Shown here: one piece after another, positions 33,975 to 34,407 of the stretch | How positions within the stretch are numbered: the first letter of the stretch is position 1 | Layout: every line of letters begins with the position of its first letter | Virus record (IMG/VR): IMGVR_UViG_2711768071_000018 | From: a virus | Taxonomy: Duplodnaviria; Heunggongvirae; Uroviricota; Caudoviricetes | Length of the DNA: 39,078 bases | Reading direction: 5' to 3' (one strand) | Notes under the pieces: model-generated | Told to the model about the DNA's origin: nothing | Databases searched by the model: none | What the model saw: the letters and a program-made list of their open reading frames with translations, nothing else | Made by a program: the position numbers and the translations under genes

Positions 33975-34407
33975 TCACAGGTGATTCTCCAGACGAAGAC
34001 CCAGAACACCGGCAATCTCTTCCAGCACCTTGCGCTCTTCCGGCTCAATTTCGCCGTCTGCCTCCGCAATGGCCACCGCCACATCCAGCACATCTTCCGC
34101 TTCACGCGTATCGTGTTTCACATCCTCGATCTCACGTAACGCCGCACGACGACCAATTTTAAAGTTCGTATCCAGCTGACCGATAATGGTTGCGCTAATC
34201 GCATTAATTTCTGACGTAAACGCGGACAGCGCAGGCTGATTACGCAGTACCTGTTCGATCTTCGCTTTCTAGGAAGCCTCACATTCACCATCTGCACAGG
34301 CCACCAGGTATGCGGCGTTAATCACCACCTGTGCCAGATCGCGTTTTTCAAACTTTTTAATTTCCGTTGCCGCTCTGCGGGCTTTTTTTACCAAAAATAC
34401 CAAACAT
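33975..34407 (-). pseudogene. TerB-like protein gene, disrupted (in-frame TAG plus apparent frameshift in an A7 tract)
   Basis: Read by eye on the minus strand: MFGIFGKK / ARRAATEIKKFEKRDLAQVVINAAYLVACADGECEAS-TAG-KAKIEQVLRN...DVLDVAVAIAEADGEIEPEERKVLEEIAGVLGL; the paired ...ADGE...E... helices are typical of the TerB family; not in the ORF track because no start codon follows the stop; coordinates approximate. Confidence 0.35.

Follow-up and report, generated by a model that had tools for sequence, protein, structure and literature searches.

Two widespread lesions in a tciA (TerB-family) gene at the stx position of a lambdoid prophage

Between the phage tRNA genes and nanS-p, where Stx phages carry stxAB, a different gene lies on the minus strand of the DNA analyzed here, a viral sequence of 39,078 nt (IMG/VR record IMGVR_UViG_2711768071_000018, hereafter the window). 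A sequence-only reading had described this gene as encoding a TerB-like protein of ~145 aa that is broken twice, by a frame switch across seven A bases just after the start and by an in-frame TAG inside plus-strand CTAGG. It attributed this amber codon to a C-to-T change at a Dcm site and took it, together with another amber codon in the same context within 1.4 kb, as a hint of deamination-driven decay of the late-region cargo. What is this gene, is it truly broken, and did deamination break it? We conclude that a lambdoid prophage very probably carries here, within its late operon, a dead copy of an accessory cassette made up of two genes, tciA (TerB family) and tciB (DUF3927). The features discussed below are collected in Table 1.

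Table 1 Features of the tciA-tciB locus and its surroundings in the window.
Feature	Position	Strand	Remarks
Q-like antiterminator	37060-36518	-	PHROG 753
DNA methyltransferase	35928-34879	-	upstream of the tRNAs
tRNA with CAT anticodon	34754-34829	-	RefSeq name tRNA-Ile
tRNA-Arg(TCT)	34577-34653	-	upstream of the cassette
Terminator-like hairpin followed by T run	34545-34564	-	just after tRNA-Arg, upstream of tciA
tciA-tciB accessory (moron) cassette	33796-34517	-	segment replaced by stx2AB in Stx2 phages
tciA/TerB-family pseudogene	33975-34407	-	143 codons once repaired; +1A frameshift and amber codon
Ancestral tciA start ATG	34405-34407	-	AAGGA Shine-Dalgarno 34416-34420, 8-nt spacer
TTG used as tciA start by NCBI PGAP	34401-34403	-	overlaps the ATG, another frame
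tciA A run, seven A	34383-34389	-	one A more than the ATG frame allows
tciA amber TAG replacing invariant Glu46 GAG	34269-34271	-	plus-strand CTAGG 34269-34273
tciB	33811-33978	-	intact; 55-aa DUF3927/TciB-like small hydrophobic protein; Pfam PF13064, 62.6 bits; PHROG 1470 'TciB-like'
STnc100 sRNA match	33634-33806	-	Rfam RF02076 full length, 101.5 bits, E 3.6e-21
nanS-p (SASA-family esterase)	31646-33496	-	downstream of STnc100
nanS-p amber, CAG>TAG inside CCAGG	32954-32956	-	ancestral ACC-CAG-GGC, inner C>T, Dcm-type

The gene itself, its A-run frame switch and its in-frame TAG inside CTAGG are all reproduced at the base level, with a length of 143 codons for the repaired TerB-family gene. 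The frame opened by the ATG reads MFGIFGKKSPQSGNGN and ends after 16 codons at TAA 34359-34357. The TerB frame is the +1 frame; it is entered across GGT-AAAAAAA-GCC, reads ...KKARRAATEIKKFEKRDLAQVVINAAYLVACADGECEAS and runs into the TAG at 34271-34269, and 3′ of this codon 97 codons are open up to TGA 33977-33975. The window copy thus has no uninterrupted frame from the TerB-family start codon, owing to the additional A and the amber codon. The ATG and the N-terminus MFG(I/F/M/L)F are conserved in tciA homologues across genera, down to 51% identity, and the in-frame alleles of E. coli carry either six A (A6; loci L003 and L108) or the non-homopolymer AAAAAGAAAACC (MFGIFKKKT...) where the window carries seven (A7). 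Read against this family ATG, A7 is a real frameshift that RefSeq models mask by starting at TTG. With the PGAP start TTG 34403, A7 alleles become intact genes, as in WP_001303509.1 (MVFLVKKARR...) of O157:H7 (CDS 3078-3506 of locus L002). Because the models start at this codon, the frameshift goes unrecorded, and the 'intact' TerB models of O157:H7 in RefSeq rest on a rescued TTG. The Shine-Dalgarno sequence is 12 nt away from TTG 34403 but 8 nt away from ATG 34407, and the better-placed ATG overlaps the TTG; A7 alleles that start at TTG are therefore likely to have reduced expression.

With one A removed and TAG read as GAG, the tciA product is 143 aa long. This repaired product matches the Pfam TerB family PF05099 with 52.7 bits (cut-off 24.4), PHROG 632 (a moron-category family named 'tellurite resistance') from position 1 to 143 of 143 (E 2e-68), and Klebsiella TerB (PDB 2JXU) over residues 15-137 (phmmer E 5.7e-8), where Glu46 lies opposite a Glu. 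The TerB-family membership proposed from the letters alone holds in all three comparisons. An AlphaFold2 model of the intact homologue P0001, which is 98% identical, is all-helical with seven helices and a pLDDT of 86. When searched against the PDB with Foldseek, this model matched the helical protein PG1108 (2h5n) as the top hit, with a probability of 1.00, a TM-score of 0.53-0.62 and a weak E-value of 0.03; a further match, also with a weak E-value, was the COG3793 tellurite-resistance protein 2ou3. These fold matches are consistent with a TerB-like helical fold and add little beyond the sequence matches. The TerB/TciA-like family is widespread in phages, including P1-like and N4-like phages and jumbo phages of Erwinia and Salmonella among others, and the names tciA and tciB are the annotation of the pair in phage records such as Escherichia phage JLK-2012. 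No meaningful match to the PADLOC defence models was found for the product of either gene. Within the family, the protein P0009 is a 197-aa TerB-DUF3927 fusion with a frameshift near the stop codon, and P0005 and P0012 carry two-residue insertions (KF or KV) directly after Glu46.

The codon that is TAG in the window is GAG in the O157 copy of strain 8368. Glu46 is invariant among the aligned homologues (22/22 and 28/28, down to 51% identity) with Trp in none of them, and it is also found in intact proteins of E. coli, Klebsiella, Salmonella, Serratia, Pantoea, Enterobacter and Erwinia jumbo phages. This residue belongs to a duplicated ADG-x5-E motif, in which it is the counterpart of the invariant Glu124. 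The ancestral tciA sequence had both motifs (D39-G40...E46 and D117-G118...E124); the window copy keeps the second intact and has lost the first at its Glu46 codon. As all homologues carry GAG at codon 46, the alignments identify the amber codon as a GAG>TAG change, a G>T transversion on the coding strand at CCGAG (plus-strand CTCGG>CTAGG). The earlier proposal that a Trp codon TGG became TAG through C-to-T at a Dcm site is thereby contradicted.

Are these lesions peculiar to the window? Of 5426 complete E. coli genomes, 840 contain matches to a 681-bp region of the window (33800-34480), and the median number of places per genome is 6. Searches with allele-specific 51-mers, for which a central mismatch leaves no 28-nt megablast seed, located the TAG allele at 1006 places in 577 of these 5426 genomes and the GAG allele at 928 places in 456 of them, copy counts that are inflated by the heavy sampling of EHEC clones. 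TAG and GAG alleles can occur together in one genome (NZ_CP028379.1). The complete RefSeq genome of strain 14EC007 (NZ_CP024131.1) is 100% identical to the window over 33800-34480, including the A run and the TerB TAG, which indicates that the lesions are not misreadings. RefSeq lists the gene of this strain (CR535_RS16800) as a pseudogene with an internal stop, under the name 'tellurite resistance TerB family protein', and a copy from O145 (A6 with TAG) has the same annotation. Together with WP_001303509.1, CR535_RS16800 represents the EHEC TerB genes of RefSeq that are 99.6-100% identical to the window tciA; it is the same allele as in the window, and the models of this group use the TTG start and leave the A7 frameshift unrecorded. 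The tciA pseudogene is thus already annotated in public genomes and is not new. A sequence pattern that covers the TerB amber site also retrieved two independent IMG/VR contigs (L070 and L074), which share 99.94-99.98% identity with the window over 6-10 kb. These comparisons show both tciA lesions to be pre-existing alleles that are common among E. coli lambdoid prophages and not private to the window, and the tciA locus is an ordinary prophage pseudogene.

We then compared 95 tciA copies with full flanks. Besides the window copy and those of three RefSeq loci, the sample comprises 91 IMG/VR contigs that were found with a 46-nt pattern; all A6 and A7 frequencies given here come from this sample. 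The largest class lacks the 5′ end and carries TAG (40/95), followed by A7 with TAG (31/95) and A7 with GAG (15/95). Fully intact copies, with an intact start and GAG, number 4 of 95. The rest are A6 with TAG and intact start with TAG (2/95 each) and a single copy (1/95) that combines GAG with an A8-like tract, a G>A variant with eight A. A7 is the commonest tract length, present in 46 of the 48 copies that carry a GGT-A(n)-GCC tract, and it is found in essentially all O157:H7 genomes. In the 40 5′-deleted copies (for example IMG/VR loci L015, L027 and L034), the start and the first ~17 codons are gone, with a common junction ...GTTAACCGGAAAAAGGAAAG/TTTGAGAAACGC, and every one of them carries the amber codon. 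Among the 95 copies, TAG occurs on 24 mosaic haplotypes, always with GCT four bases upstream and never with GCA; GCT and GCA both occur at this position (-4) in the GAG allele. Since TAG is always linked to GCT, the amber codon probably had a single origin, and the same linkage suggests that recombination or gene conversion between lambdoid prophages of the same host then carried it onto different haplotypes and 5′ states.

The 97 codons downstream of the amber codon are open in all 75 of the 75 amber copies among the IMG/VR and RefSeq loci, where 12 non-synonymous and 28 synonymous polymorphisms are found, and tciB is damaged in 19 of the 75. An open frame with mostly synonymous polymorphism could hint at residual constraint, but it is equally expected from recombination with functional alleles. 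We rejected the 12:28 ratio as a test of selection, as most of the variants lie in blocks shared with intact alleles and probably arrived through recombination. Variation imported in such blocks explains the pattern without constraint. The 40 amber copies that have lost the 5′ end and the 19 of 75 with damaged tciB point to decay. This damage would be tolerated if the cassette is dispensable, which we consider probable, and the counts suggest that, where cargo is dispensable in this way, its defective alleles circulate between the numerous prophages that EHEC genomes contain. The 48-aa remnant reading frame at 33975-34121 on the minus strand, with a GTG start (MKHDTREAED...), has its own family, phrog_3920, of 48 positions. 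Evidently, gene callers turned the tails of amber alleles into a 'protein family'.

It had been proposed that both amber codons arose when 5-methylcytosine in Dcm sites was deaminated (C>T), and that they mark decay of the late-region cargo. What stands of this proposal is that both stops lie in CTAGG, 1.3 kb apart, and that one of them, in nanS-p, is indeed CAG>TAG within CCAGG. The classic amber hotspots of Dcm are CAG>TAG changes at CCAGG in lacI; the nanS-p amber is exactly of this type, whereas the TerB amber, a G>T change at CCGAG, is not. At the tciA site, the ancestral sequence is not CCWGG and the change is not an inner-C transition (C>T, or G>A). Its ancestral coding strand was TCC GAG, so the site was never CCWGG and deamination of 5-methylcytosine is excluded for the tciA stop. 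The two stops also differ in their distribution. The 51-mer of the nanS-p amber is present in none of the 5426 complete E. coli genomes, and its exact sequence is present in L070 and L074; the amber codon in nanS-p therefore appears, from these searches, to be recent and lineage-specific, unlike the old and widespread TerB amber, and the two are separate events. A count of CCWGG against CTWGG across the window, suggested as a check for a deamination signature, gave no excess of the latter: CCWGG occurs 86 times (81 expected), and CTWGG, for which dinucleotide shuffles predict 126 ± 11, occurs 14 times, about 9-fold fewer. A depletion of this kind is known and has been attributed to very-short-patch repair. 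CTAG tetranucleotides occur six times in the 39-kb window and CTAGG three times, two of which are the stop codons discussed here. Between the window and the closest complete genome, positions 31021-39078 contain 19 differences (18 substitutions and one 1-nt indel), and the nanS-p stop is the only one of the 19 that is of the Dcm type. With CTWGG depleted and not enriched, the comparison supports one plausible Dcm event, in nanS-p, and no regional deamination signature, and we regard deamination as the common cause of both stops as extremely unlikely. More generally, a stop codon in CTAGG context alone is not evidence of Dcm deamination, and the ancestral codon must be checked.

Other explanations concern what the two tciA lesions mean. 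Homopolymers are error-prone in some sequencing chemistries, so that A7, and perhaps TAG, might be sequencing or assembly errors in the window, but the identical sequence in a complete RefSeq genome and the same alleles in L070, L074 and hundreds of other assemblies leave this idea with almost no credibility. A more serious candidate holds that A7 is no lesion, that translation starts at TTG 34403 as in WP_001303509.1, that A7 alleles with GAG are functional, and that the amber codon alone inactivates the window copy. PGAP indeed calls copies with A7 and GAG intact, and the prevalence of A7 in the sample and in O157:H7 also speaks for this idea. The conservation of MFG.F and the ATG across genera argues against it, as MVFLV is found in A7 alleles only, and the better-spaced ATG, which overlaps the TTG, should capture ribosomes into the dead-end frame of 16 codons. 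Moreover, the O157 clone is too young for conservation of the allele to prove function. We consider a functional TTG start unlikely, though it is by some distance the strongest of the competing explanations.

The lesions might also be recoding or regulatory signals, in which transcriptional slippage or a +1 ribosomal frameshift on the A run, amber readthrough, or both would yield full-length TciA at a low level and selection would maintain the allele. Such a role would fit an amber allele that makes up about half of all copies, the lack of a further stop or indel in the 97 downstream codons of the 75 amber copies, polymorphism that is mostly synonymous, and the existence of A6, A7 and A8 tract variants. 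The A tract is not conserved, however, with A6 and AAAAAGAAAACC in other alleles and no such tract in other genera, and only a +1 shift would be productive. Seven bases also make a short tract for efficient slippage. The only tRNAs present are the Arg-TCT and CAT-anticodon tRNAs, with no suppressor among them, and the loss of the 5′ end and start from 40 amber copies and the damage to tciB in 19 of 75 form a pattern of decay. Recoding is in our judgment very improbable. In a related view, poly-lysogens would benefit from losing or attenuating TciA, and gene conversion would therefore have driven the Glu46 amber, carried by about half of the ~1,900 copies in complete E. coli genomes, through their lambdoid prophages, or the amber codon together with A6/A7 would act as expression switches; the many mosaic haplotypes with TAG and the open downstream frame in the 75 sampled amber copies would fit. 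We think this doubtful in the extreme, if marginally less so than recoding, and recoding and a selected allele considered jointly remain very improbable. The evidence favors a dead copy of the cassette.

For the dead copy, the consequences of the lesions can be proposed as follows. Ribosomes that initiate at the ATG would stop after 16 codons because A7 holds one A too many, and the amber codon at Glu46 would allow at most about 44-45 N-terminal residues (44 aa from the TTG start), with loss of the rest of the helical domain. The gene for the second protein is intact. Its GTG start overlaps the TGA stop of tciA (GTGA), and with its own Shine-Dalgarno sequence (GGAG) upstream, tciB may still be translated. 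From the ancestral cassette one would expect two products, a helical, soluble protein with a TerB domain and, coupled to it, a small protein of hydrophobic character; their families, PHROG 632 and PHROG 1470, are both in the moron category.

The position of this cassette agrees with the earlier placement of the gene in the stx slot between the phage tRNAs and nanS-p. When the window was aligned by blastn with Stx2 phage II (L110), two flanks matched (34980-34518 and 33795-33670) with stx2A and stx2B between them, and many Stx2/Stx2a phages give the same two-piece match with stx2A and stx2B annotated in between. As both flanks are common to Stx2 phages and stx2AB fills the gap, the alignments identify the cassette as a true alternative occupant of the stx slot. 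The locus neatly illustrates that lambdoid prophages can carry other cargo at the stx position, here tciA-tciB instead of stxAB. The late operon runs in the order Q, DNA methyltransferase, tRNAs, tciA-tciB, STnc100 and nanS-p, followed in the 14EC007 prophage by holin and lysozyme genes. A scan of the minus strand for sigma-70-like promoters found no site between the tRNA terminator and tciA, and for this reason the cassette is probably transcribed as part of the Q-dependent late transcript.

How does this cassette compare with known systems? The tciA gene of phage P1 is 40-51% identical to that of the window over its full length (tblastn), and in P1 too a small TciB-like gene (DUF3927, PHROG 1470) directly follows tciA. 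To our knowledge, nobody has demonstrated a function for P1 tciAB, and the name is an annotation only. In both P1 and the window, the tci genes adjoin DNA methyltransferase and tRNA genes. The P1 order is dmt, trnT, plp, upl, tciA, tciB, tciC, trnI (PMC10695390), and the order of methyltransferase (34879-35928), tRNAs (34577-34829) and tciA-tciB (33811-34407) in the window echoes it. By this analogy, the cassette may travel with tRNA and methylase genes. P1 tciA and tciB were non-essential in a CRISPRi screen (PMC10695390), and roughly one in two P1-like plasmids no longer carries tciABC (PMC9603915); we count both observations in favor of dispensability of the cassette, the tci genes being often lost in the P1 setting as in that of the window. 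Unlike their P1 counterparts, the genes of the window occupy the stx position within the late operon of a lambdoid prophage; tciC is not seen, and the tciA copy is a pseudogene.

The TerB of terZABCDEF clusters shares with the window gene the PF05099 domain, the alignment to 2JXU (residues 15-137), which takes in the residues of the acidic motif, and an all-helical prediction. Unlike that TerB, the window gene is phage-borne, has no terA, terC, terD, terE or terZ neighbors, and is accompanied by the gene for a tiny membrane protein alone. In the literature on TerB or TciA at the stx locus, we found no functional study.

Two further observations concern the surroundings of the cassette. The prophage of 14EC007 (L109, NZ_CP024131.1) is the closest complete-genome relative of the late region. 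It is degraded, with IS421 between the two tRNAs and IS1 in the tape-measure gene; its nanS-p is intact, and it lies beside tccP2 and espV. On the other side of the cassette, the STnc100 match begins 5 nt after the tciB stop, in the flank that is common to Stx phages. According to a 2026 preprint (10.64898/2026.05.13.724894), STnc100 is related to the PasD sRNAs, and TerB is among the conserved neighbors of PasA and PasC.
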